This document shows, in pieces, positions 2,388 to 27,023 of a stretch of DNA of 60,167 bases; positions within the stretch are counted from its first letter, which is position 1, and each line of letters starts with the position of its first letter. The notes under the pieces are model-generated. The model was not told the origin of the DNA and did not search any database. It saw only the letters and a list, made by a program, of their open reading frames with translations. The stretch is from IMG/VR virus record IMGVR_UViG_3300045227_000003; one strand, given 5' to 3'. This DNA is from a virus. A program made the translations under genes and the position numbers.

Positions 2388-2990
2388 TTAAACTTCGTCT
2401 TCGTCTTCCCACTCTTCGTCGTCATCCCACGCGTCGGACGTGTCTACACGACCTTCACCGAATGGTTCGTCGTCTTTGCGTTTCAGGACGGAGATCAGGT
2501 TGGCGTTAACGCGCTTACCAAACTTGTTTTCCTGCGACCAAGGGCGGATCACAGCGGAAACCCAGCAACCGCCATAAATCTCTTCGGCGATCTCGTTCGG
2601 GCTGTCCAGTTCCTCGCGTTCGATGTTCAGAACGTCCGGGCGCTTGTTCTCACGCGCTGAAATCACCCACATACCTTCGCACTCAGGCTTATCTGGGAAG
2701 TCAGTATCGCCGTCTTTGATGAACAACATGGAAGGGGCGACTTTCAGCGGCCCGGTCTTGTGGTTCTTCTTGGTGACTTCGATCTGCTCACGGATAATCT
2801 TCTCGATTTCGCCGTGGGTCTTTTTAGGCAGCAGCAGGGTGATCGAGTATTTAGGCTCGCCACCATCCTCGCCGCCGTATGGCTTGTCGAGGTGCGGATA
2901 AGAACAACGGGCGTTAGAAATCTTGATGTGCCCAGACTTGTACAGCACGCCATTCTTAACTTTCTTCTGGGGGATTAACTTCTCAGCCAT
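2388..2990 (-). CDS. ssDNA-binding protein, DUF2815-like
   Basis: 200 aa lying between the exonuclease and the polymerase, as in DUF2800/DUF2815/PolA modules. Ends in the acidic tail WDDDEEWEDEDEV. Confidence 0.6.
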   Translation of the reverse strand: MAEKLIPQKKVKNGVLYKSGHIKISNARCSYPHLDKPYGGEDGGEPKYSITLLLPKKTHGEIEKIIREQIEVTKKNHKTGPLKVAPSMLFIKDGDTDFPDKPECEGMWVISARENKRPDVLNIEREELDSPNEIAEEIYGGCWVSAVIRPWSQENKFGKRVNANLISVLKRKDDEPFGEGRVDTSDAWDDDEEWEDEDEV

Positions 2991-3039
2991 GATTACTTCC
3001 TCTCGTTTTACGGGTTTACACGGATTATCGGTTTACGAT

Positions 3040-4377
3040 CTACACTTCGTCGTCATCGTCTTCATCGTCATACGCGCCGTGGTACTTGCCGTCGAGTGGA
3101 AGCCGCTTATCTGTCAGCGGAACCAACGTTGGTTTTCCGTCAGGTTTATAGACATGTTGGTCGATAATGACCGGAGCGCCAGCCCTTGACAGCCCCAATT
3201 TCTCCCGAAGAACATCTTCCATCTGCGCGGGAGACCGCATTTCTGATTTGATGTAGTCCGACTCTTCCAGCCCAAGGAATTCGAAGAGGTCAATTACATC
3301 CTTCTCGTCCTTAAACTTGCGGAACGTCCGCGACTCCACCAACTTCTGCCCGGGGATCTTCTCCCCTTTCAAGGCCCGCTGCTCCAGCTCAAAGTCAAGC
3401 CGGGCAAACCAGTTCTCGATAACCTTACGGTAGGGCAAGATCTTCGCCATTTCAACGGTAGTCAGATTGCCGAATTTGGCCCGGGTCATCTTGTACTCGT
3501 CTTTCAAGGCATCGCGTAATGCACTCATTTCCGCCTCGCCGAATTCTTGGCCTAGAAAATACGTGTCACCACCGACTGCACACTCCATCATGTAGGCCAC
3601 GGCTGCGCAGTTATGTGCGGCCCGGCACCACCGGCACCCCTTCAACGTTGCTCGGCGCGTCGCGTTGAGATCCCAAGCCAAGGCGATCTGCCCGCGTGCA
3701 TACTCTGCAAAGTCCAGCAGGGCGTCGACGGTAACTTCCCACACGTCGAAGTGCTCAAGGCGGGGCTGTGCAATCCGAATGAGTACCCTATCGAATTCGT
3801 AATCATCCGAGAAGGCACGATAAGCACCGTAGGCGTAAAACAGTGCCTGCGTGTTATCCTCGGCGAAAACCTGCACGCCCGTACCATACTTCAAGTCCGT
3901 TATGATAAGGACGCCATCACGGATGATGATGTTGTCCGCCGTACCGCCTTGTGGTGCAAACGGTATGGCCGGTTTATCTGGCTCGTCCGGGTTGGCCCGA
4001 GGCATCAAATCCGTGAACCACACGCGGATCTCGGTAAACATTTCGCCTTCTTCGAACCGGCACCAGTCGACATAATCCTGAATGTAGTCCAGCATGGCCC
4101 GGGTGACTTTTATGTCGTGGGTCACGCCGTTTTCGGTCAGGCTGATCTCGGTACCGATCAGGTGATTCGGGCGTTGGTCTGACTTCAACCACTTCTCGGC
4201 GATGCCGTGAGCGACGGTGCCTTCTGCAGCCTCGAAGCTCGTTTCGTCATCTTCGAAAAGGTTAGCGAGTAGGCTACCAGAACACGATAGCCACATTGCA
4301 CTGCCGGACGGGGCGAATATTGAATGCCCACCCCCGGCGAATTCCCGCATAATGCGGGTCATCAGCGATTCAGCCAT
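3040..4377 (-). CDS. Cas4/DUF2800-type PD-(D/E)XK exonuclease
   Basis: N-terminal HSIFAPSGSAMWLSCSGS plus the C-terminal Cys cluster CRWCRAAHNC give a Cas4-like 4-Cys pattern. I prefer the ATG at 4377 (MAESLM) over the ORF-track start at 4428, which would bury the upstream 110-aa ORF. Tail is YDDEDDDDEV. Confidence 0.75.
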   Translation of the reverse strand: MAESLMTRIMREFAGGGHSIFAPSGSAMWLSCSGSLLANLFEDDETSFEAAEGTVAHGIAEKWLKSDQRPNHLIGTEISLTENGVTHDIKVTRAMLDYIQDYVDWCRFEEGEMFTEIRVWFTDLMPRANPDEPDKPAIPFAPQGGTADNIIIRDGVLIITDLKYGTGVQVFAEDNTQALFYAYGAYRAFSDDYEFDRVLIRIAQPRLEHFDVWEVTVDALLDFAEYARGQIALAWDLNATRRATLKGCRWCRAAHNCAAVAYMMECAVGGDTYFLGQEFGEAEMSALRDALKDEYKMTRAKFGNLTTVEMAKILPYRKVIENWFARLDFELEQRALKGEKIPGQKLVESRTFRKFKDEKDVIDLFEFLGLEESDYIKSEMRSPAQMEDVLREKLGLSRAGAPVIIDQHVYKPDGKPTLVPLTDKRLPLDGKYHGAYDDEDDDDEV

Positions 4378-4702
4378 TTTGGTACCCATGCGTCGCGGCA
4401 ATAAAACGTTTAATGCCGACCTGTTCAATCTTACGCGTTAGTGCCTTGGCCCCGGCAGCGCCGTAATTGTTCCTTCCGGCGTTATACCGGGTGGACACTA
4501 CATCCCGCCAAGAAACTTCGTCTACCCGTCGACCGCTCGCACCGTGCGTGAGCACGAAGGCAAACGGCTTTGTGGTGGAAGAAGTAACTCTGAAAAGTAT
4601 ATCGCGACCGCCAATCTCGTAACGGAACTCAGACCACTGAAAAACCTCAGTGCCAGAACCTGCCGTTGCTACCCTGACGCGCTTAAAACTGTTCACAATC
4701 AC
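4370..4702 (-). CDS. Hypothetical protein, 110 aa
   Basis: ORF-track entry with a GTG start just after GAGG. Same strand as its neighbours, and its stop overlaps the exonuclease ATG by 8 nt. No motif recognised. Confidence 0.5.
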   Translation of the reverse strand: MIVNSFKRVRVATAGSGTEVFQWSEFRYEIGGRDILFRVTSSTTKPFAFVLTHGASGRRVDEVSWRDVVSTRYNAGRNNYGAAGAKALTRKIEQVGIKRFIAATHGYQNG

Positions 4703-4710
4703 CTCACTTT

Positions 4711-4736
4711 GATGAAAACGGCCCCCGAAGGGGCCG
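4711..4736 (-). terminator. Intrinsic terminator/attenuator inside the early operon
   Basis: Minus-strand reading is cggcccc-ttcg-ggggccg followed by ttttcatc. It lies between the 128-aa gene and the 110-aa gene. Confidence 0.55.
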
Positions 4737-4754
4737 AGTTACCGGAAGAGGTTA

Positions 4755-5141
4755 TTAAACCTCGTCTTCGCCTTCTGCGTTGGTTTCTTCCAACTTAGCC
4801 TGACAGGCGTCGAAGATGGCGTCGAATTGGTCTTCTTTCGCTTCCGCGATTTTCGCCAGACCGAACTCGGCGGTGATTGCCTTGGCCGCTGGGGCACCGA
4901 ACGCGTCTTTAACCGCAACTACAGCCGCGACAACTTCGTCTTTGGTGTGAGTTGGTTTTGGCTTCTCGGTGGTTTTGGCCTTACCGGTAGTGGTTTTCTT
5001 GCCGGTAGTGCTGGTGGTCTTACCGGCGTCTGCGCCAGCTACTTCGCCAGCAGGGGCTGCGATACCGTTAGCCAGCAGGGATTCCAGCAGGGTGTTAGTT
5101 TTAACTTGTGCTTCCAGAATTTGCTCAAGGATACCTGACAT
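4755..5141 (-). CDS. Hypothetical protein, 128 aa, first gene of the leftward operon, acidic tail
   Basis: ORF track. It has a low-complexity T/K-rich linker (TTSTTGKKTTTGKAKTTEKPKP) and ends in AEGEDEV. GGAG lies upstream of the ATG. Confidence 0.65.
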   Translation of the reverse strand: MSGILEQILEAQVKTNTLLESLLANGIAAPAGEVAGADAGKTTSTTGKKTTTGKAKTTEKPKPTHTKDEVVAAVVAVKDAFGAPAAKAITAEFGLAKIAEAKEDQFDAIFDACQAKLEETNAEGEDEV

Positions 5142-5195
5142 AATTTCGTGCTCCGTTTCGGTTGTTTAAAAGGTCGTGTCGTGTTGACGGAGTGA

Positions 5196-5225
5196 AGTAT
5201 TGCCCATAGCCGTACACCCTGTCAA
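5196..5225 (-). promoter_or_regulatory. Sigma70-type promoter, leftward
   Basis: -35 TTGACA is the reverse complement of 5220..5225. -10 is AATACT with an 18-nt spacer, or CAATAC with 17 nt. It sits about 50 nt upstream of the ATG at 5141. Confidence 0.55.
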
Positions 5226-5250
5226 ACACTTTTTTAAAACTTTTTACGTC

Positions 5251-5334
5251 GGTACCGTAACTCTTTTACTTTCCGGGTGAAACGTAGCTACGGTACCGCC
5301 GTAAACCTTTAATTGACGGGGGTGGCTACCGTAG
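5251..5334. promoter_or_regulatory. Operator-like repeats between the divergent promoters
   Basis: ggTACCGTAa at 5251..5260, the palindrome CGTAGCTACG at 5283..5292, ggTACCGccGTAa at 5292..5304, and cTACCGTAg at 5326..5334. The last one lies inside the spacer of the rightward promoter. Confidence 0.45.
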
Positions 5335-5342
5335 TCTATTAT
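5313..5342 (+). promoter_or_regulatory. Sigma70-type promoter, rightward
   Basis: -35 TTGACG at 5313..5318, an 18-nt spacer, and -10 TATTAT at 5337..5342. It lies about 40 nt upstream of the ATG at 5384, which is preceded by GGGGG. Confidence 0.6.
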
Positions 5343-5383
5343 CCGCAAATCTATAACACGCGCACACCACGCGAGGGGGCACG

Positions 5384-5665
5384 ATGCGTTTTCCGAAATG
5401 GGCGATCTCCGATGATCGAATGAAGGTTAAATACCTAATGATGCAGATGGCATTAGAGGTAGACCCGAACGGCCGCATGGCTGTTTTGGCAAAAGAGGCA
5501 GACGTTGGGTACGAAACCCTTTTATGGGCAATTCGCAATAACGTGTCATCAGTTGTGGCCGAAAAAGTAAGCGCTGCAGTGCCACAATGCGGGGTTCGGC
5601 CCCATTGGTTGACTAACCCGTCATGGATCAAATTCGATGAAACAACCGGGGAAATCTTTGAATGA
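5384..5665 (+). CDS. Small Cro/YdaS-like HTH regulator, 93 aa
   Basis: First gene after the rightward promoter. The segment AVLAKEADVGYETLLWAIRNN...AAVPQCGVRPHWL resembles the YdaS/Cro-type HTH layout. Its stop overlaps the primase start (ATGA). Confidence 0.5.
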   Translation: MRFPKWAISDDRMKVKYLMMQMALEVDPNGRMAVLAKEADVGYETLLWAIRNNVSSVVAEKVSAAVPQCGVRPHWLTNPSWIKFDETTGEIFE

Positions 5666-17561: not shown

Positions 17562-17907
17562 AACCGTAGCCGTGATCGGCGAAGAGTACCGGCAACTGCG
17601 CGCGGTGCGCCTTGATCAGCTGATCGAGAAGACCCGCTACATGGAAGTTTGGTACGACGCGCTGGAAGAGGATGCGCAAACATTCTTTAACAGCCAACTG
17701 GCCCTACTGGAAAGCGGTACGACCCCTGACCATGAGCGCCTGTATAACCAGATCAGTGACCGGTTCGCCGAAACGATGGCAAACATCCGGTCAGCACGCG
17801 AAGCACAACGCATGGCCTGCGCCCACATCACGGCGGCTATGTACCACGGCCTTCCGGCCAACCTGATAAATATCGAGGCACTGGACAATGAAAGTAAAGA
17901 ATTTTGA
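17548..17907 (+). CDS. Hypothetical protein, 119 aa, GTG start
   Basis: ORF track. Confidence 0.45.
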   Translation: MADNKTVAVIGEEYRQLRAVRLDQLIEKTRYMEVWYDALEEDAQTFFNSQLALLESGTTPDHERLYNQISDRFAETMANIRSAREAQRMACAHITAAMYHGLPANLINIEALDNESKEF

Positions 17908-18958
17908 CAAGCTGGTGGCGCTGCACCTCGGCGCACTGTATGACGCGGCCAACGATAACAGCGAGAAGGTGACACCGTTCCACCGCCTGCTGTTGAGCAC
18001 GCCAGACATGGATGAAGAGACCATCCATAAATTCGCGACCAAAACCCTGTCCGATAAGTTGAAACCCGAGGCGATCACTGACCCGGCAGAAGCGTCGTAC
18101 TCGTCTATGGGCTTCGCACCGTTCAGCGAGGAAGTCGGCAACACGTTCGCCCTATCCATCCCGGGCACGAAAGCCATCGTCCTGCAGGTCGAGAAGCGCG
18201 AGCGTGTATTGCCGGGCGTGAGCGTCCGTAACGCCGTGGTAGAGCGTATGAAGGCGCTGCAGGCCAAAGAGATCGACGGCTGGACGCCGACCCGGAAGGA
18301 TTGGGCCGAGCTGAAAGAGGACGTCGAAGCCAACATGCTGAAAACCGCGCCGATCCGTCCGTCCAAGATCTTCATCATGCTGTCCATGCCATACGTGTTC
18401 GTGTTCACCAGCAGCGCCAAGAACGCCGAAGCCTGCACGGCCATGCTGCGTAAAGCCGTGGGCACCTTCCCTACCGAAAGCCTGCTGATCGACGAGTACA
18501 GCCTACGCCAGTTCATGAAAGGCGTGGTGGCGAAGAAGTACAGCGACTACGAGCCTGACCACTACGTCCACGTTAAGCACGAAGACGGCGACGACGTGAA
18601 GGTCAAGGACATCGACATCGGCAACTGTACGATGGTCAACGACCTACTGGACAACGACTACACGCCTCGCGCGCTGGACTTCTCGGTCGACACCCAGACC
18701 ATCGGCATTGACCGCGTGTGGCTGCGCCTGACCGATAAGGCCATCGTATCCGGGCTGCATATCGGCGAGGCTGACGTTGACGCCAACTACGACGCCACGC
18801 TGGAACACTACGGCACTGACGGCGGGCTGTTCCTGTCCATGATGGCTAACCTGTTCCAGCTCGACAAGTCCCTCCACGCGCTGTTCCGCTCACTGGATGA
18901 AACCGGCGAGATCGTGGTCGAGTACACGGCCACACTGGAAGATGACGACGAGGTTTAA
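17888..18958 (+). CDS. RdgC-like recombination-associated protein with DDEV tail
   Basis: 356 aa. The stretch IVLQVEKRERVLPGVSV...TRKDWAELKEDVEANMLKTAPIRPS...TSSAKNAEACTAMLRKAVGTFP runs parallel to E. coli RdgC as I remember it: ICARKEEKILPSPVI...[21 protein letters not shown]...[22 protein letters not shown]. Ends in LEDDDEV. Confidence 0.55.
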   Translation: MKVKNFDKLVALHLGALYDAANDNSEKVTPFHRLLLSTPDMDEETIHKFATKTLSDKLKPEAITDPAEASYSSMGFAPFSEEVGNTFALSIPGTKAIVLQVEKRERVLPGVSVRNAVVERMKALQAKEIDGWTPTRKDWAELKEDVEANMLKTAPIRPSKIFIMLSMPYVFVFTSSAKNAEACTAMLRKAVGTFPTESLLIDEYSLRQFMKGVVAKKYSDYEPDHYVHVKHEDGDDVKVKDIDIGNCTMVNDLLDNDYTPRALDFSVDTQTIGIDRVWLRLTDKAIVSGLHIGEADVDANYDATLEHYGTDGGLFLSMMANLFQLDKSLHALFRSLDETGEIVVEYTATLEDDDEV

Positions 18959-21011: not shown

Positions 21012-22192
21012 GCGAGCAAAAACTGACATACATCACTACCCCGGCAGAGATCCGCACCTTCCTGAACATGGCGCTGGACGCCGGACTACAGCCGAACGCG
21101 AGCGGCCTGCACATCGTGGCCGAAGAGTTCCTGATTAAAGAATGCAAGGTTCCATTGGAAAACATCATGCAGGTGACAGGCGTGAAGGTCATTGAAGGCC
21201 CGAACAACGGCCTGCCGGAGCACATCACAATCGAGTGGGATCGAACCCCACGCATCAGTGTAGCCCCGACCCCGGCGCAAGAGACTGCATGGAGCCGTGA
21301 ACAGGCGGACTACATCATCAAAGAGATCGTTGGGCAGCTCCGCAAGCCACGCGCCACGTCGAACCCGGAATTCACTATCAGCATGACACCGCGAGAAACG
21401 GGAATGAGCGAAGCCTTTGCCGCCCCATACGGCCTGAGCACCATGCCGCGCATGTCCGTTGAGGATGCCTTGCGCCAGTTCGGTCGTGCCGCGAGCAAGA
21501 TATCCGACGCTACTGCAAGTAACTTCGAGAAGTTGGCCGAGCACTTCGACGAAATGGAGTTTAAGCGTGTGGCCGGAGTCTCCCCGGAAGAGTGGGCGGC
21601 GAAGGTCGACGAACTAGACAGCGCCAAGGCCACCATCACCAGTCTGCAGATCCAAATGGAAGAGTCCCGCCGCAACCATGCCGAGGACATTGCCGAGTAT
21701 GAGCGCAAGGTCAAGATGTTGCAGGTCGATAAGGACACCATGCGGGCCACGTCCAAGTCGATCCGCGACACCTACCGCCATGCCCCACGGACATGCAGCG
21801 TAAGCGCGATATGGGCCGAGCTGTTCTACATGAACCCTATCACCGCGCGCTGGATCATTGAGTCCGCCTACAAGCTGTTCAACGTCGCCATACCGGATAA
21901 CGGTTTCGATGTCGATGTCCGTCAGGCGAAGAAAGACCTGCCGACGGCGGCGATGCACTACATCCACGGCATGTGTGACAACCTCATGATCGTGCCGGTG
22001 CCGAAGCCTGTAACGCGCCAGATGTTGAAGACGGCAATGACCATGCTGGTGCAAAAAATCGGCCACGATGAAGCGCTGGCGCTGCTGACCCGCCAAACTG
22101 GGGCAGGCCGCATAGATCAGGTTCCTGACGATCAGGTCGAACCGCTGTATCATGCCGCCATCACCGCCACGCACAACGAGGATTTCATTTAA
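21008..22192 (+). CDS. Hypothetical protein, 394 aa
   Basis: ORF track. The central segment is coiled-coil-like (ITSLQIQMEESRRNHAEDIAEYERKVKMLQVDKD). Confidence 0.6.
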   Translation: MSEQKLTYITTPAEIRTFLNMALDAGLQPNASGLHIVAEEFLIKECKVPLENIMQVTGVKVIEGPNNGLPEHITIEWDRTPRISVAPTPAQETAWSREQADYIIKEIVGQLRKPRATSNPEFTISMTPRETGMSEAFAAPYGLSTMPRMSVEDALRQFGRAASKISDATASNFEKLAEHFDEMEFKRVAGVSPEEWAAKVDELDSAKATITSLQIQMEESRRNHAEDIAEYERKVKMLQVDKDTMRATSKSIRDTYRHAPRTCSVSAIWAELFYMNPITARWIIESAYKLFNVAIPDNGFDVDVRQAKKDLPTAAMHYIHGMCDNLMIVPVPKPVTRQMLKTAMTMLVQKIGHDEALALLTRQTGAGRIDQVPDDQVEPLYHAAITATHNEDFI

Positions 22193-22878
22193 TGAGCGAG
22201 TACCTTGACCACCTGAACAACCTGAAAGCCCGGCTCGAACATGAGCCGAAGGAGATTGGCGACCAATGGCGCACCCCGGAATGGCTGTTTCAGGCGATTA
22301 ACCACCTGTACGGGCCTATCGTGCTCGACCTGTTTACCGACGGCCAGAATGCCAAATGCCCGCGTTTCTTCACCGCCGAGGATAACGCGCTGCAGCAGGA
22401 TTGGGCCGGTAAACTGCAGGCGATCCACGCCGAGATAGGGGCCGACCCTTGCGAAATGGTATGGGGCTACGCGAACCCGCCATACAGCCAGAAGCGCGCC
22501 GGGAAGGAACCGCTGACCGGGATGACCCACATCATGCGCAAGGCGGACGAGGAACGTAAGCGCGGCGCGGGCACCATATGGCTAACCAAGTCCGCCACGT
22601 CCGAAAGCTGGTGGCCCGACGAGACCGCGACCCGGATCATCTTCATCAAAGGCCGCATCGGTTTCGAGCCGCCGGTCTGGTTCAACGCCAAGGCAGGCAG
22701 CAGCGAGATCACCGGGGCCGGGTTCGGCGCGTCCATCATGGTGTTCGACCCATGCGACGACCGCATCTACCCGAACGAGTACGTCAGCCGGGAGTACCTG
22801 CTGGAGATTGGGTCGAAACTGGCGGACATCAGTCAGGCCGAACGTGACGCGTGGATCGCGTTATGGGATGAAATCTAG
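22192..22878 (+). CDS. Phage Dam-type DNA N6-adenine methyltransferase
   Basis: DQWRTPEWLF, LDLFTDGQNAKCPRFFT and GYANPPYS match the phage N-6-adenine methyltransferase layout. Confidence 0.7.
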   Translation: MSEYLDHLNNLKARLEHEPKEIGDQWRTPEWLFQAINHLYGPIVLDLFTDGQNAKCPRFFTAEDNALQQDWAGKLQAIHAEIGADPCEMVWGYANPPYSQKRAGKEPLTGMTHIMRKADEERKRGAGTIWLTKSATSESWWPDETATRIIFIKGRIGFEPPVWFNAKAGSSEITGAGFGASIMVFDPCDDRIYPNEYVSREYLLEIGSKLADISQAERDAWIALWDEI

Positions 22879-23925: not shown

Positions 23926-24117
23926 ATGAAAAAGATTGCTGCGTTAGTCCTGTTCACTGTGATTATGTTCTTCGTTCTGTTCGTACTGGTGTGGGTTGGC
24001 GCGGCAATCCGCTGCAGTGATGTCCAAGAACAAACGGAAGTATCCACCAAATACAGCCCGCTATCCGGTTGCTACTGGTTCGTTGGCGGGAAATGGAAAC
24101 CTTTACCTTGGGAGTAA
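23926..24117 (+). CDS. Small membrane protein, 63 aa
   Basis: N-terminal TM helix ALVLFTVIMFFVLFVLVWVGAAI. Confidence 0.5.
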   Translation: MKKIAALVLFTVIMFFVLFVLVWVGAAIRCSDVQEQTEVSTKYSPLSGCYWFVGGKWKPLPWE

Positions 24118-24123
24118 CTATCC

Positions 24124-24330
24124 ATGTCATGCAAATGTGAAGAACGTCAGAAGCCAGTGGCCGACCGCGCGTGGTTTATCATGAACTACCGCTGCAATTA
24201 CAGCTCATTTAACGGTGGCCGCCGGGCCACGTCGGACTACAGCGAGATCTGCTGCCATGTATGTCGCTGTGTCTGGCGCACGAAAGCCGGGTACGTCGAG
24301 ACCCTGCGCCAGAAAGGGAAGAAGCTATGA
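24124..24330 (+). CDS. Cys-rich small protein, 68 aa
   Basis: Has CKC, RCN and CCHVCRC, a zinc-binding-like pattern. Its stop overlaps the next ATG (ATGA). Confidence 0.5.
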   Translation: MSCKCEERQKPVADRAWFIMNYRCNYSSFNGGRRATSDYSEICCHVCRCVWRTKAGYVETLRQKGKKL

Positions 24331-25217
24331 AACAGGAATATCAGGAACGCCGGTTTACCCCGGAAAACTGCGACCTGCTGCGTGTGATCGATGACATCGT
24401 TGGCGAGTACCAAGAGCAAGGGTACATGCTGACCACACGTCAGGTGTACTACCAGTTGGTAGCGCGCGACACGGTGCCCAACACCCTGAACAGCTACAAG
24501 CGCATCGCCGGGCTGATCAACGACGGCAAACTGGCCGGGGTTCTGGACTGGGACGCACTGGAAGACCGCACCCGCGAGTTCAAGACCCGCGCCCACTGGA
24601 CATCCCCGGCGGGCATCTTGTCGGCCTGCGCTAACCAGTACCACGAAGACTTGTGGCACCGCCAGTCGGCCCGGGTGTTCGTCATCATTGAGAAAGAGGC
24701 GCTGGTGGGCGTGCTCGAAGACCTGTGCCACCGCTACGATGTCCCGCTGCTGGCGGCGCGCGGATACCCAAGCGGCACGGTATTACGGGCCTTTGCGCAG
24801 GAGCACTTACTTCCGGCCACGTCCGAGGGCGTCTTCTGTAAAATCCTGCACCTCGGAGACCACGACCCGAGCGGCATCGACATGACCCGGGATCTCGACG
24901 ACCGCATCGACATGTTCACCGAGCGCAACGGCGGCTACCACCTTGAGCGTATCGCGCTGAACATGTCGCAGATCGAAGAGGTCAAGCCGCCTGAGAACCC
25001 GGCCAAGCCTACCGACGCCCGGTTTAAGAAGTACCGCCAGCGCTTCGGCAATTCGAGCTGGGAGTTAGATGCGCTGCCGCCGTCATACCTGAACAATCTG
25101 GTGGAGACCAACATCACCAAGATGATCGACGACGACCTGTGGCAGAAGCAGGTAGACCGCATCAGCGAGTACCGCCGCCAGATCAGTAAAATCGCAGACC
25201 AGTTTGAAGAGGAATAA
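24327..25217 (+). CDS. Stand-alone Spo11/Topoisomerase-VI-A-like protein (5Y-CAP winged helix plus Toprim)
   Basis: 296 aa from the ATG at 24327. TTRQVYYQL matches the catalytic-Tyr motif (R-x-[ILV]-[YF]-Y). VFVIIEKEALVGVL matches the Toprim Glu. ARGYPSGTVLRAF...ILHLGDHDPSGIDM matches the G-x-P...DxD metal site. SWELDAL matches the closing E-x-x-AL motif. Confidence 0.6.
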   Translation: MKQEYQERRFTPENCDLLRVIDDIVGEYQEQGYMLTTRQVYYQLVARDTVPNTLNSYKRIAGLINDGKLAGVLDWDALEDRTREFKTRAHWTSPAGILSACANQYHEDLWHRQSARVFVIIEKEALVGVLEDLCHRYDVPLLAARGYPSGTVLRAFAQEHLLPATSEGVFCKILHLGDHDPSGIDMTRDLDDRIDMFTERNGGYHLERIALNMSQIEEVKPPENPAKPTDARFKKYRQRFGNSSWELDALPPSYLNNLVETNITKMIDDDLWQKQVDRISEYRRQISKIADQFEEE

Positions 25218-25220
25218 GTA

Positions 25221-25685
25221 ATGTTTGAGCACACTAAGGTCGGGGACGTTGTTCTCGTCATCCGCGAGATCCGTATCCGCAACTATTCGGGCGTACACTT
25301 CGCGGTAAAAGAAGAGGTGGGCCACACCACCAAGACGCAGATCGTGGTCAACGGCATCCGATACTACCGCAAGAACGGCAAGGCGGTGGGGGACTGGAAC
25401 CAAGGCATCTACCACATCGGGGATGACATGGCCGGGCGTTGGCTCGCATCCCCGCCGGAAGAAGTGGACAAGGCGGAGTTTAAGCGACTGGAGAACTACA
25501 GCCGTCGTTTCAGGGAGTTGATAGACGTCTTCCTGCCTAACCTAAAGAGTCCTGAAATGGCCGCTATATTCCGGCAGAAAACCCTGCGTGACCAACTGGC
25601 CCGCGACGCCAACGCACTGTACGCCTCGCTGACCGAAGGCATCAAGGACGCCGGACTGGGTAGCATACTCGAACCTAAGAAATAG
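25221..25685 (+). CDS. Hypothetical protein, 154 aa
   Basis: ORF track. Confidence 0.55.
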   Translation: MFEHTKVGDVVLVIREIRIRNYSGVHFAVKEEVGHTTKTQIVVNGIRYYRKNGKAVGDWNQGIYHIGDDMAGRWLASPPEEVDKAEFKRLENYSRRFRELIDVFLPNLKSPEMAAIFRQKTLRDQLARDANALYASLTEGIKDAGLGSILEPKK

Positions 25686-26103: not shown

Positions 26104-26343
26104 ATGGCAAGTAAACGACGTCTGCGTCGCAGGCAATGCGAAGGGAAGGTTAAGCACGCAACGGCGGAGAACGCGGCTATCGCGATCCGCAAGGTTCACC
26201 GGGCGAAGGGCCACCAAGGCCAGATGCACGCCTATCGGTGCCCATTTTGCGGGCAGTTTCACGTCGGCCACGTTCAGGGCCGTAACGGTATTGGTTCAGC
26301 TTACGGAGGCCCGGCATGGGGTGGACGAAATACAAAACGATGA
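26104..26343 (+). CDS. Small zinc-ribbon protein, 79 aa
   Basis: QCEGK...YRCPFCGQFHVGH resembles a common small phage Zn-ribbon pattern. Confidence 0.55.
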   Translation: MASKRRLRRRQCEGKVKHATAENAAIAIRKVHRAKGHQGQMHAYRCPFCGQFHVGHVQGRNGIGSAYGGPAWGGRNTKR

Positions 26344-27023
26344 AGGAGCGCCACATCAAGCCGCACTTCACGTACAGCGGCGGGATCTGGCACTGCTTCC
26401 GGCAGTTCGATAACGACGGTGCGTACCCATGCCATTTCCCGGTTAAGCACGCGCACCTGTTCTTCAACGCCGAACGCATGGCGGATATGCTCGCCTCCTA
26501 TGCTTGGTGGAAACGCAAAGACCCGAAGAACGCCCGGCTGACCGACGCCATGCTGATCCGCTACGCCTCCGTGTACCGCTTCTGGGATACCGTGGGCCGC
26601 AAGCGGTTCGAGTACGTCGGCTCGTCCACGCTGTTCGCCATGCACCGGGGCAGCAAGCACGCCCGGGACTACACGGCCTACCTGCAGCGCCGCATCAAGC
26701 CCAAGGCCGGACGGCGGACAGTCATCACCGCCGACATGGTGCAAGCGCTGATCGCCTCCGGGTACTGCCGGGTATCGAACAACTACAAGACCGTGGCGCG
26801 CATCGATCGGGAAGACTGGCGCGAGGTTCTGGCGCTGGACTACAGCTCGAACGATCCGACGGGTGACGGCATGGCCCGGGCTTTGGGCGACCGGTCAGGT
26901 GATTACTACCGCCGTGGGTTCAGCAAGGACACGCTGACCATTGATGACGAGTACCTGTTTAAACTGTTCCCCGGGTCAGGTGACGGCCCGGACTACTACC
27001 TACCGTTATGCGAGGACGAATGA
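26316..27023 (+). CDS. Hypothetical protein, 235 aa
   Basis: ORF track. Ends in LCEDE. Confidence 0.55.
   Translation: MGWTKYKTMKERHIKPHFTYSGGIWHCFRQFDNDGAYPCHFPVKHAHLFFNAERMADMLASYAWWKRKDPKNARLTDAMLIRYASVYRFWDTVGRKRFEYVGSSTLFAMHRGSKHARDYTAYLQRRIKPKAGRRTVITADMVQALIASGYCRVSNNYKTVARIDREDWREVLALDYSSNDPTGDGMARALGDRSGDYYRRGFSKDTLTIDDEYLFKLFPGSGDGPDYYLPLCEDE

Follow-up and report, generated by a model that had tools for sequence, protein, structure and literature searches.

Can a relative of the cleavage subunit of topoisomerase VI break and rejoin DNA in a phage that encodes no B subunit, and what would such a protein be for? This question is raised by a 296-amino-acid (aa) protein encoded on the plus strand at positions 24327-25217 of the virus record IMGVR_UViG_3300045227_000003, the whole 60,167-nucleotide (nt) stretch of which is referred to here as the window. 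A first-pass annotation, made from the sequence alone, had taken the protein for a stand-alone homolog of the topoisomerase VI A subunit (Top6A) and Spo11. We find that the gene encodes a member of the already published Mini-A family, and it is probably best explained, taking all of the evidence together, as a B-independent Mini-A that would break and rejoin DNA as an optional gene of the phage replication and recombination set. What is new here is the Chi-like phage context of Mini-A, that is, its position in an accessory, swappable slot and the exclusion of the partners that had been suggested for it.

Translation of the frame places each of the motifs claimed for the 296-aa protein where it had been said to lie. 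The features of the gene are as follows.

24327-25217, plus strand: Mini-A coding sequence, 296 aa and a TAA stop codon (from translation).
24327-24330, plus strand: ATGA start/stop overlap of Mini-A with the upstream 68-aa open reading frame (ORF; 24124-24330) (from the sequence).
24360-24560, plus strand: winged-helix or 5Y-CAP-like domain, residues ~12-78, equal to the second half only of the Top6A CAP (AlphaFold2 [AF2] helices; hhalign).
24438-24452, plus strand: R38-Q-V-Y41-Y42, with the putative catalytic tyrosine Y42 and the putative clasp arginine (invariance; alignment to R-E-x-Y-Y of Top6A).
24663-24956, plus strand: Toprim domain, residues ~113-210, four strands alternating with three helices (both AF2 models; Foldseek; sub-threshold Pfam matches).
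24690-24692, plus strand: E122 in VFVIIEKEA, the Toprim metal-site glutamate at the end of strand 1 (invariance; alignment).
Residues 146-149, plus strand: GYPS (translation).
24855-24875, plus strand: G177-D178-H-D180-P-S-G183, the DxD metal-binding motif at the end of strand 3 (conservation; alignment).
25059-25076, plus strand: W245-E246-L-D-A-L250, the Mini-A signature T2BI box (invariance; published signature).
25131-25211, plus strand: C-terminal amphipathic helix, residues 269-295 (AF2 helix; conserved hydrophobic positions).

Takahashi et al. 2020 (PMC7671362) describe Mini-A as ~300-aa proteins of bacterial and archaeal viruses in which a shortened 5Y-CAP domain, without its N-terminal half, precedes a Toprim domain. 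The motifs given there are RxxY/FY, a Toprim glutamate, and DxDxxG; a T2BI box, xWELDAL, separates Mini-A from topoisomerase VI (R/KxExxA/S) and topoisomerase VIII (RVELNAM), no Bergerat-fold partner ("Mini-B") lies nearby, and the proteins form a separate clade in type IIB trees. In the window protein, three winged-helix helices are followed by a four-strand Toprim domain (AF2, hhalign, and Foldseek), R38-Q-V-Y41-Y42 corresponds to R-x-x-[YF]-Y, E122 and D178-H-D180-P-S-G183 correspond to the Toprim glutamate and DxDxxG, and S244-W-E-L-D-A-L250 corresponds to xWELDAL, of which WELDAL is invariant in 39 homologs. The gene is virus encoded, with capsid, portal, terminase, and tail genes in the window, and none of the 59 window ORFs scanned with Pfam contains a GHKL/Bergerat fold or a Top6B transducer, which bears out the earlier statement that the genome has no GHKL B subunit. 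Measured against this description, the protein differs in nothing and is an ordinary Mini-A.

This family is large. At least 7,774 protein clusters in a large protein collection are homologous at an E value of ≤1e-3, and homologs occur in 84 phage records, many of which carry the RefSeq label "DNA topoisomerase." The window protein matches PHROG 6247 ("DNA topoisomerase") over its full length (E=6e-128) and shows full-length homology, with E values down to 1e-9, to proteins of Listeria, Pseudomonas, and Salmonella phages and of a haloarchaeal virus, the kinds named in PMC7671362; NCBIfam holds no model for the family. Its closest sequenced relatives are in Serratia phage Smarc5 (81% aa identity) and Salmonella phages BP12C, SPN19, and 118970_sal1 (74%).

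The homologs also bear on the start codon. A longer frame is possible from an ATG at 24261, but the N termini of all homologs instead begin at the position of MKQ(E/K)Y, and 24327 is therefore the likely start; the purine-rich stretch AAAGGGAAGAAG lies directly 5' of this ATG. Downstream, the next gene starts 3 nt past the Mini-A stop codon and is preceded by GAGGA. In SPN19 (NC_019417, locus L086, 4001-4888), homology to Mini-A begins at 4001, at an ATGA overlap with gp25, and the RefSeq start is at 4130 (252 aa). With the RefSeq start, the protein appears to lose ~43 residues from its N terminus, the RxxYY catalytic motif among them, and the N terminus is shortened in the same way in a 252-aa Salmonella enterica entry (P0009).

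Conservation was assessed in the 39 Mini-A homologs, of 54-94% identity, and in a wider set to which members of 23-42% identity were added (from a haloarchaeal virus and from Cellulophaga, Bacteroides, Listeria, and cyanobacterial phages). R38, Y41, Y42, E122, D178, D180, G183, and W245-L250 are invariant in the first set, and R38, Y42, E122, K123, D178, P181, G183, R208, and E246 are still invariant in the second, down to 23% identity. D180 is replaced by Asn in only one member of the wider set, that of haloarchaeal virus HCIV-1. Because the motifs are invariant among the closer homologs and largely so among the remote ones, they are not chance matches, and the tyrosine that had been singled out as catalytic, with its conservation named as a point to check, is Y42, kept in both sets. 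From the conservation of R38, Y42, E122, D178, and E246, we infer that catalysis would have been retained. A DNA-binding or regulatory protein that had kept the fold and lost the chemistry seems highly improbable; no activity has been reported for any Mini-A and the HCIV-1 member has Asn for the second Asp of DxD, which would agree with such a protein, but the invariance of the nucleophile, the arginine, and the metal ligands across 23-94% identity (HCIV-1 D180 aside) is hard to explain without catalysis.

We then compared the window protein with Top6A and Spo11 at the sequence level. Pfam gives for it only a sub-threshold match to DUF2399, the JetD Toprim (E=0.011, 15.9 bits versus a cutoff of 23.4), and in the 39 members the matches, again all sub-threshold, are to DUF2399 (33 of 39), TOP6A-Spo11_Toprim (11 of 39, best E=1.5e-3), and TP6A_N (4 of 39, best E=0.016), with no other Toprim clade found in these scans. 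A Top6A reference set was built from sequences with Pfam TP6A_N, Topo_VI_alpha, and TOP6A-Spo11_Toprim domains, and for a more diverse profile we added the PDB chains of Methanocaldococcus jannaschii, Sulfolobus shibatae, and Methanosarcina mazei Top6A and yeast Spo11. With hhalign, alignments to single Top6A/Spo11 sequences or to a narrow Top6A profile were weak (E=1e-3 to 0.1), and the diverse profile scored 42.3 (E=4.5e-5, probability 69%, 204 collinear columns); 60 column shuffles scored at most 24.6, and a reversed profile scored 16.4. The alignment pairs R38 with R, Y41-Y42 with YY, E122 with E, and D178-x-D180-P with D-x-D-P. E122 thus stands opposite the glutamate of Top6A "IETGG" and Spo11 "VEKEA," and the DxD motif stands opposite Top6A "TDGDPWS" and Spo11 "TDADPYG." Homology of Mini-A to Top6A and Spo11 is therefore remote but supported.

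The same alignments mark the limits of the likeness. Residues 13-105 align to the winged-helix region of Top6A, and only 12 residues precede the first aligned position of Mini-A, the equivalent of which in M. mazei Top6A is ~residue 89. The N-terminal half of a full 5Y-CAP domain, which contacts the B subunit, is not present in the window protein, and Pfam TP6A_N and TOP6A-Spo11_Toprim give no match to it. At the other end, the hhalign alignments to Top6A stop at residues 247-260, and the C-terminal helix lies beyond the alignable part. This helix has conserved heptad-like hydrophobic positions (W272, I279, Y282, I286, I289/A290, and F293) and is otherwise variable; it could pack on the protein body or help the protein to dimerize.

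Structure models gave the same assignment for the Toprim domain. The AF2 model of the whole protein (predicted local distance difference test [pLDDT] score 84, predicted template-modeling [pTM] score 0.75) has helices at residues 12-30, 37-46 (bearing Y42), and 54-70, then the four-strand, three-helix Toprim, and the helix at 269-295. A domain model of residues 105-268 reached pLDDT 89 and pTM 0.85, and the top Foldseek match to it was M. mazei Top6A in a DNA-cleavage state (9o0g_A, E=6.7e-6, probability 1.00, query-normalized template-modeling [TMq] score 0.64). Next came 8b7f_A, described as "Nuclease from C. glutamicum" (E=9.4e-4, TMq 0.53), which to judge by that description and its release date is probably MksG. 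CheY-like receivers, type IIA Toprims, RecR, and a small Toprim protein ranked lower, the Toprims and RecR with E values of ~0.01 or worse. The profile and structure comparisons that had been proposed as a check thus both lead to Top6A, and the identification as a stand-alone Top6A/Spo11-like Mini-A stands, given the published sequence features (PMC7671362), the alignment of the catalytic motifs with those of Top6A/Spo11, and a Toprim domain that best matches Top6A.

A different Toprim family, such as a primase, OLD, or JetD, had been named as the finding that would overturn this assignment, and no model of such a family claims the window protein. PADLOC defense models (JetD, OLD/GajA, PARIS, and others) gave no match to it. 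JetD/MksG was rejected since DUF2399 is sub-threshold, no PADLOC JetD model matches the window protein, and 8b7f ranks below Top6A in Foldseek; in two remote Mini-A members, the PADLOC JetD models give marginal matches of 27-40 residues around DxD. The OLD/GajA, DnaG primase, and type IA/IIA topoisomerase Toprims were set aside as well, with no Pfam or PADLOC matches in the 39 members and with Top6A placed first by Foldseek. JetD/MksG of the Wadjet/MksBEFG systems (DUF2399; 8B7F, presumably MksG) does have a Toprim of the same clade. Unlike JetD, Mini-A has neither the JetD N-terminal domains nor JetABC/MksBEF genes beside it (by Pfam, none of the window ORFs has an SMC or kleisin domain), and it differs from JetD/MksG in having an invariant RxxYY that aligns with Top6A and in being phage encoded, outside a host defense operon.

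The window protein thus belongs to the Top6A/JetD Toprim clade and has kept a tyrosine domain of the Top6A type. It cannot be counted as a canonical Top6A, because it falls below the Pfam thresholds, lacks the Top6B-binding half of CAP, and has no B subunit. With Top6A and Spo11 (PDB 1D3Y, 2Q2E, 9O0G, and 8URQ), it shares the order of winged helix and then Toprim, the aligned catalytic Arg/Tyr, Glu, and DxD, and probably an Arg-Glu clasp. In contrast to Top6A, it is ~70-100 residues shorter, lacking the B-subunit-binding N-terminal half of CAP, and it has its own C-terminal signature and the extra amphipathic helix; in contrast to both Top6A and Spo11, it has no Top6B or TOP6BL-type partner in the window. 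Plasmid-borne topoisomerase VIII, as PMC7671362 presents it, resembles Mini-A in being encoded by a mobile element, in lacking the first half of 5Y-CAP, and in its reinforced T2BI box, but the GHKL/transducer B moiety that topoisomerase VIII has, fused or adjacent, and its RVELNAM box are both absent from Mini-A.

How might such a protein work? Top6A is reported to be a homodimer in which the tyrosine acts in trans at the Mg2+ site of the partner (Nichols et al. 1999). By analogy, Mini-A would act as a homodimer, and Tyr42 of one protomer, positioned by Arg38, would attack a DNA phosphodiester beside the Mg2+ site (E122/D178/D180) of the other. The products would be a covalent 5'-phosphotyrosyl-DNA and a free 3'-OH, in a nick or a staggered double-strand break, and the reaction would in principle be reversible. 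Contact between Arg38 and Glu246 would probably hold cleavage back as long as the protein has not met a suitable DNA substrate or state, as proposed here from the R102-E342 clasp of Top6A. The enzyme would need neither a GHKL B subunit nor a conserved partner encoded by the phage, and its most probable role would be making or resealing breaks in phage DNA that feed replication or recombination.

The clasp invoked here comes from a 2026 cryo-EM study in which a salt bridge of M. mazei Top6A, R102-E342 (the "electrostatic clasp"), keeps the tyrosine off the Toprim, the E342Q mutant is hyper-cleaving, and the pair is reported to be conserved in Spo11. The M. mazei Top6A equivalents of R38 and Y42 are R102 (the Arg of RxxYY) and Y106. 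In its treatment of the T2BI box, PMC7671362 equates the Glu of WELDAL with the T2BI Glu and describes E340 of M. jannaschii Top6A as bonding R99 and Y103. Since R38 and E246 are both invariant and E246 is the published T2BI Glu, an Arg-Glu clasp probably exists in Mini-A as well, and its apparent retention singles out E246Q as a mutant that might unmask cleavage activity. Aligned directly to Top6A, the WELDAL segment gives E=0.017 over a short segment and needs a ~14-residue deletion in Mini-A after a shared "TDxRF...W." This shared motif lies just upstream of the T2BI box, as "TD(S/A)RF ... W" in Mini-A (25008-25076, plus strand, residues ~228-250) and "TDPRF ... W" in Top6A, a likeness not met in the portion of PMC7671362 that discusses Mini-A.

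The database label suggests a further role, that of an ATP-independent topoisomerase that would relax or decatenate circular phage DNA during replication by breaking it transiently and sealing it again. Homology to the cleavage and religation core of topoisomerase VI and the reversibility of transesterification speak for it, and the lambda-type terminase genes make cohesive-end circularization, and with it a need for topology management, probable. However, no ATPase or gate is encoded among the 59 ORFs, whereas type II strand passage depends on an ATPase-transducer module; the absence of an ATPase gate also makes ATP-driven strand passage by Mini-A unlikely. Top6A cleavage is coupled to the state of the B subunit (2026 cryo-EM study), Mini-A lacks the CAP half that binds Top6B, host gyrase, topoisomerase IV, and topoisomerase I are available, Mini-A is dispensable in Chi, and the label itself derives from homology and not from an assay. 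We consider this role quite unlikely.

If no B subunit is present, a neighboring gene might take its place, and the first-pass annotation had pointed to the 68-aa and 154-aa neighbors as candidate partners. We surveyed 80 viral contigs with a Mini-A at 43-65% identity and 5 remote phage loci, which with the window make 86 loci. Neither neighbor was found near Mini-A in the 85 other loci (tblastn and jackhmmer), and de novo clustering of adjacent ORFs across the 86 loci gave no recurrent family, the largest cluster filling 6 of 43 downstream positions and 5 of 50 upstream positions. Both proteins were therefore rejected as a "Mini-B" partner, the more so as a homolog of the 154-aa protein is kept in phage Chi, which has no Mini-A. 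The translational coupling that had been noted with the Cys-rich 68-aa protein is real as an ATGA overlap, but the pairing is not conserved among relatives. In Smarc5, a 120-aa ORF lies between a 67%-identical homolog and Mini-A; SPN19 has no Cys-rich protein, and a 79-aa ORF unrelated to it makes the same ATGA overlap with Mini-A. Because the upstream ORF varies in this way, the coupling is positional and not a conserved pairing.

What does recur around Mini-A is replication and recombination functions. Within ~5 kb in the 86 loci, we found a primase-polymerase/helicase (18 loci), a ResIII helicase (16 loci), an ATP-dependent ligase (11 loci), an integrase (11 loci), an SNF2 helicase (9 loci), and ThyX (9 loci), with RNase H and a DUF669 protein in fewer. 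Pseudomonas phage NP1 (locus L089, 2950-7678) has the order primase, dUTPase, RNase H, ThyX, ligase, Mini-A, Sak4-like, ..., Cas4-like exonuclease, helicase, and the ligase-Mini-A-Sak4-Cas4-helicase set of NP1 and Nipunavirus would cover break, resection, annealing, and sealing. The recurrence of helicases, ligase, ThyX, and RNase H and the Sak4/Cas4-like set of NP1 support a B-independent Mini-A that would make or reseal breaks for replication or recombination.

The window itself is a Chi-like siphovirus of the Casjensviridae, the family in which SPN19 is classified (Chivirus). By Pfam, its replication genes encode DNA polymerase A, an Enc34-type single-stranded DNA-binding protein (SSB), DUF2800 (Cas4-like), and a primase-polymerase/helicase; it further encodes RdgC, a Dam methylase, a nucleoside 2-deoxyribosyltransferase-like protein, and an SNF2 helicase, and its structural genes comprise a lambda-type terminase, portal, protease, decoration, and capsid module and the tail genes. 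Of the nucleases said to accompany Mini-A in this genome, RdgC and the Cas4-like protein are present, and a VRR-NUC was not found at E≤0.01 in the scanned ORFs.

17888-18958: RdgC (Pfam).
3040-4428: DUF2800/Cas4-like protein (Pfam).

A more specific form of a recombination role is a phage "Spo11," which would introduce programmed breaks or nicks into phage DNA for processing by phage exonuclease, annealing protein, and ligase, leading to recombination-dependent or rolling-circle replication; its 5'-phosphotyrosyl chemistry would leave a 3'-OH primer, as HUH Rep proteins do. The invariant catalytic residues, the ATP-dependent ligase, Sak4, Cas4-like exonuclease, and helicases among the neighbors, and the RdgC, DUF2800/Cas4-like protein, Enc34-type SSB, DNA polymerase A, and primase-helicase of the window are all consistent with it. 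There is also a precedent, for Krupovic and colleagues raised the idea of a rolling-circle initiator for skuldviruses, which have no other replication protein. However, Chi and most Chi-like phages replicate without Mini-A, sister Queuovirinae have the ligase beside Sak4 and no Mini-A, and the window phage has a full primase/polymerase set. The initiator idea in particular fits poorly with a phage that itself encodes a primase and a polymerase and whose relatives manage without Mini-A. On these grounds, a phage "Spo11" is possible but, in our estimate, unlikely.

How Mini-A is distributed among related phages was followed through a conserved flanking gene (26316-27023), homologs of which occur in 148 phage records, 87 of them Salmonella phages. 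Only ~6 of the 87 Salmonella Chi-like records carry Mini-A. In phage Chi, synteny is intact (Dam, gp51, gp50, ..., gp47, which is the 154-aa homolog, gp46, ..., gp43, and gp41), and Mini-A is absent at the protein and DNA levels, with an unrelated 84-aa protein, gp48, in its place. Since Chi keeps the synteny and the 154-aa homolog with gp48 in place of Mini-A, the 154-aa protein is not specific to Mini-A, and the region bounded by the 154-aa ORF and a conserved 63-aa membrane-like ORF is hypervariable, a slot that takes alternative cargos.

23926-25685, window: slot with the Cys-rich 68-aa ORF and Mini-A.
2736-3886, phage Chi (locus L088): slot with gp49 and gp48.
3598-5391, SPN19 (locus L086): slot with gp25 (gp49 homolog) and Mini-A.
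3220-5649, Smarc5 (locus L087): slot with a Cys-rich 72-aa ORF, a 120-aa ORF, Mini-A, and a 93-aa ORF.

Mini-A is thus an optional gene, dispensable within the Chi-like lineage and not essential for such phages, which argues against an essential role such as the concatemer processing that had been suggested. Elsewhere its presence is steadier. Within the Queuovirinae, it is kept throughout the genus Nipunavirus, adjoining Sak4, and sister lineages do not have it; Sphingomonas phage MMDA13, for example, carries no Mini-A, and its ligase gene lies immediately next to Sak4. Where it is present in the relatives of the window, it is 74-81% identical, versus 31-67% for its neighbors.

Such a patchy distribution makes a role in conflict a serious rival: Mini-A might be a nuclease directed at host DNA or at rival phages or plasmids, a counter-defense gene, or a selfish, homing-type cassette. 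Its occurrence in ~6 of 87 records, its patchiness within a genus, its seat in a hypervariable slot, and its stand-alone nature without a conserved partner would all suit this role, and related Toprim dimers are the nucleases of the Wadjet and Gabija defense systems. On the other hand, the Chi slot holds a different gene and not a clean presence/absence junction, Mini-A is stable in all Nipunavirus and always beside Sak4, and it is strongly conserved relative to its neighbors, unlike typical decaying homing endonucleases. No PADLOC defense model matches, and the kept Tyr/Arg/Glu clasp would suggest controlled, reversible cleavage and not a destructive nuclease. We therefore regard a conflict gene as a rather doubtful explanation.

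Several points weigh against a B-independent Mini-A that breaks and rejoins DNA for replication or recombination. Top6A is inactive without Top6B, and Spo11 needs partners, so that stand-alone activity is not a given. Reviews from 2021 to December 2024 describe the activity and role of Mini-A as unexplored and report no biochemical activity, and we found no functional characterization in the literature of any Mini-A or of the window gene in Chi-like phages, in agreement with the earlier remark that Mini-A function is not established. Its absence from Chi and most Chi-like phages means that any replication role is nonessential there, and the equivalence of E246 with E342 of Top6A, on which the clasp depends, rests on the published alignment (PMC7671362). 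The evidence for homology also has its gaps. Searches of PDB sequences with the single sequence and two family profiles returned nothing relevant; even the Top6A profile detects Spo11 at no better than E=7e-6 and JetD not at all, and these clades are therefore beyond the reach of searches of a hidden Markov model against sequences. With the narrow Top6A profile, hhalign gave a score of 31.3 (P=0.002) that block-shuffled nulls equal, which shows that the signal is carried mainly by the motif blocks. Finally, whole-chain Foldseek searches of the PDB and BFVD matched only generic Rossmann/CheY-like folds (template-modeling score ~0.2), with no Top6A or Spo11 among the matches. This failure is explained by the domain model, which alone gives Top6A as the top match; long, poor alignments had swamped the whole-chain search.

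The most far-reaching form of the B-independent mechanism is an autonomous Spo11-like homodimer, perhaps formed through the C-terminal helix, whose regulated covalent breaks would feed phage recombination or cut rival genomes. We hold this to be a tentative proposal with the odds against it. If true, Mini-A would show in a present-day protein what has been proposed as the stand-alone A-type ancestor of type IIB topoisomerases and of meiotic double-strand break formation. The size of the Mini-A family and its homology to the meiotic recombination initiator and to archaeal and plant topoisomerase VI give the matter weight, and the naturally Mini-A-plus and Mini-A-minus Chi-like phages on tractable enterobacterial hosts (Salmonella) offer a convenient test system.

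Some minor observations concern the neighboring genes. The 68-aa protein (24124-24330, plus strand) contains seven Cys and one His in the arrangement CxC...C...CCHxCxC, with six of the Cys kept in the Smarc5 homolog, a pattern suggestive of a small protein that binds zinc; searches of Pfam, PHROGs, NCBIfam, and PADLOC gave no family match for it. The 154-aa protein (25221-25685, plus strand) matches PHROG 9072, "thymidylate synthase complementing protein" (E=2e-12), a label that RefSeq has copied to SPN19 gp27. It has no Pfam Thy1 match, true ThyX proteins near other Mini-A loci score 1e-43, and the label seems to be a misannotation that has propagated. Upstream, the window encodes a Dam-type N6-adenine methyltransferase (22192-22878, plus strand; Pfam Dam, E=8e-33), and its SPN19 counterpart, gp22, carries the RefSeq label "phosphoadenosine phosphosulfate reductase," which stems from a secondary PHROG label and is probably a misannotation.

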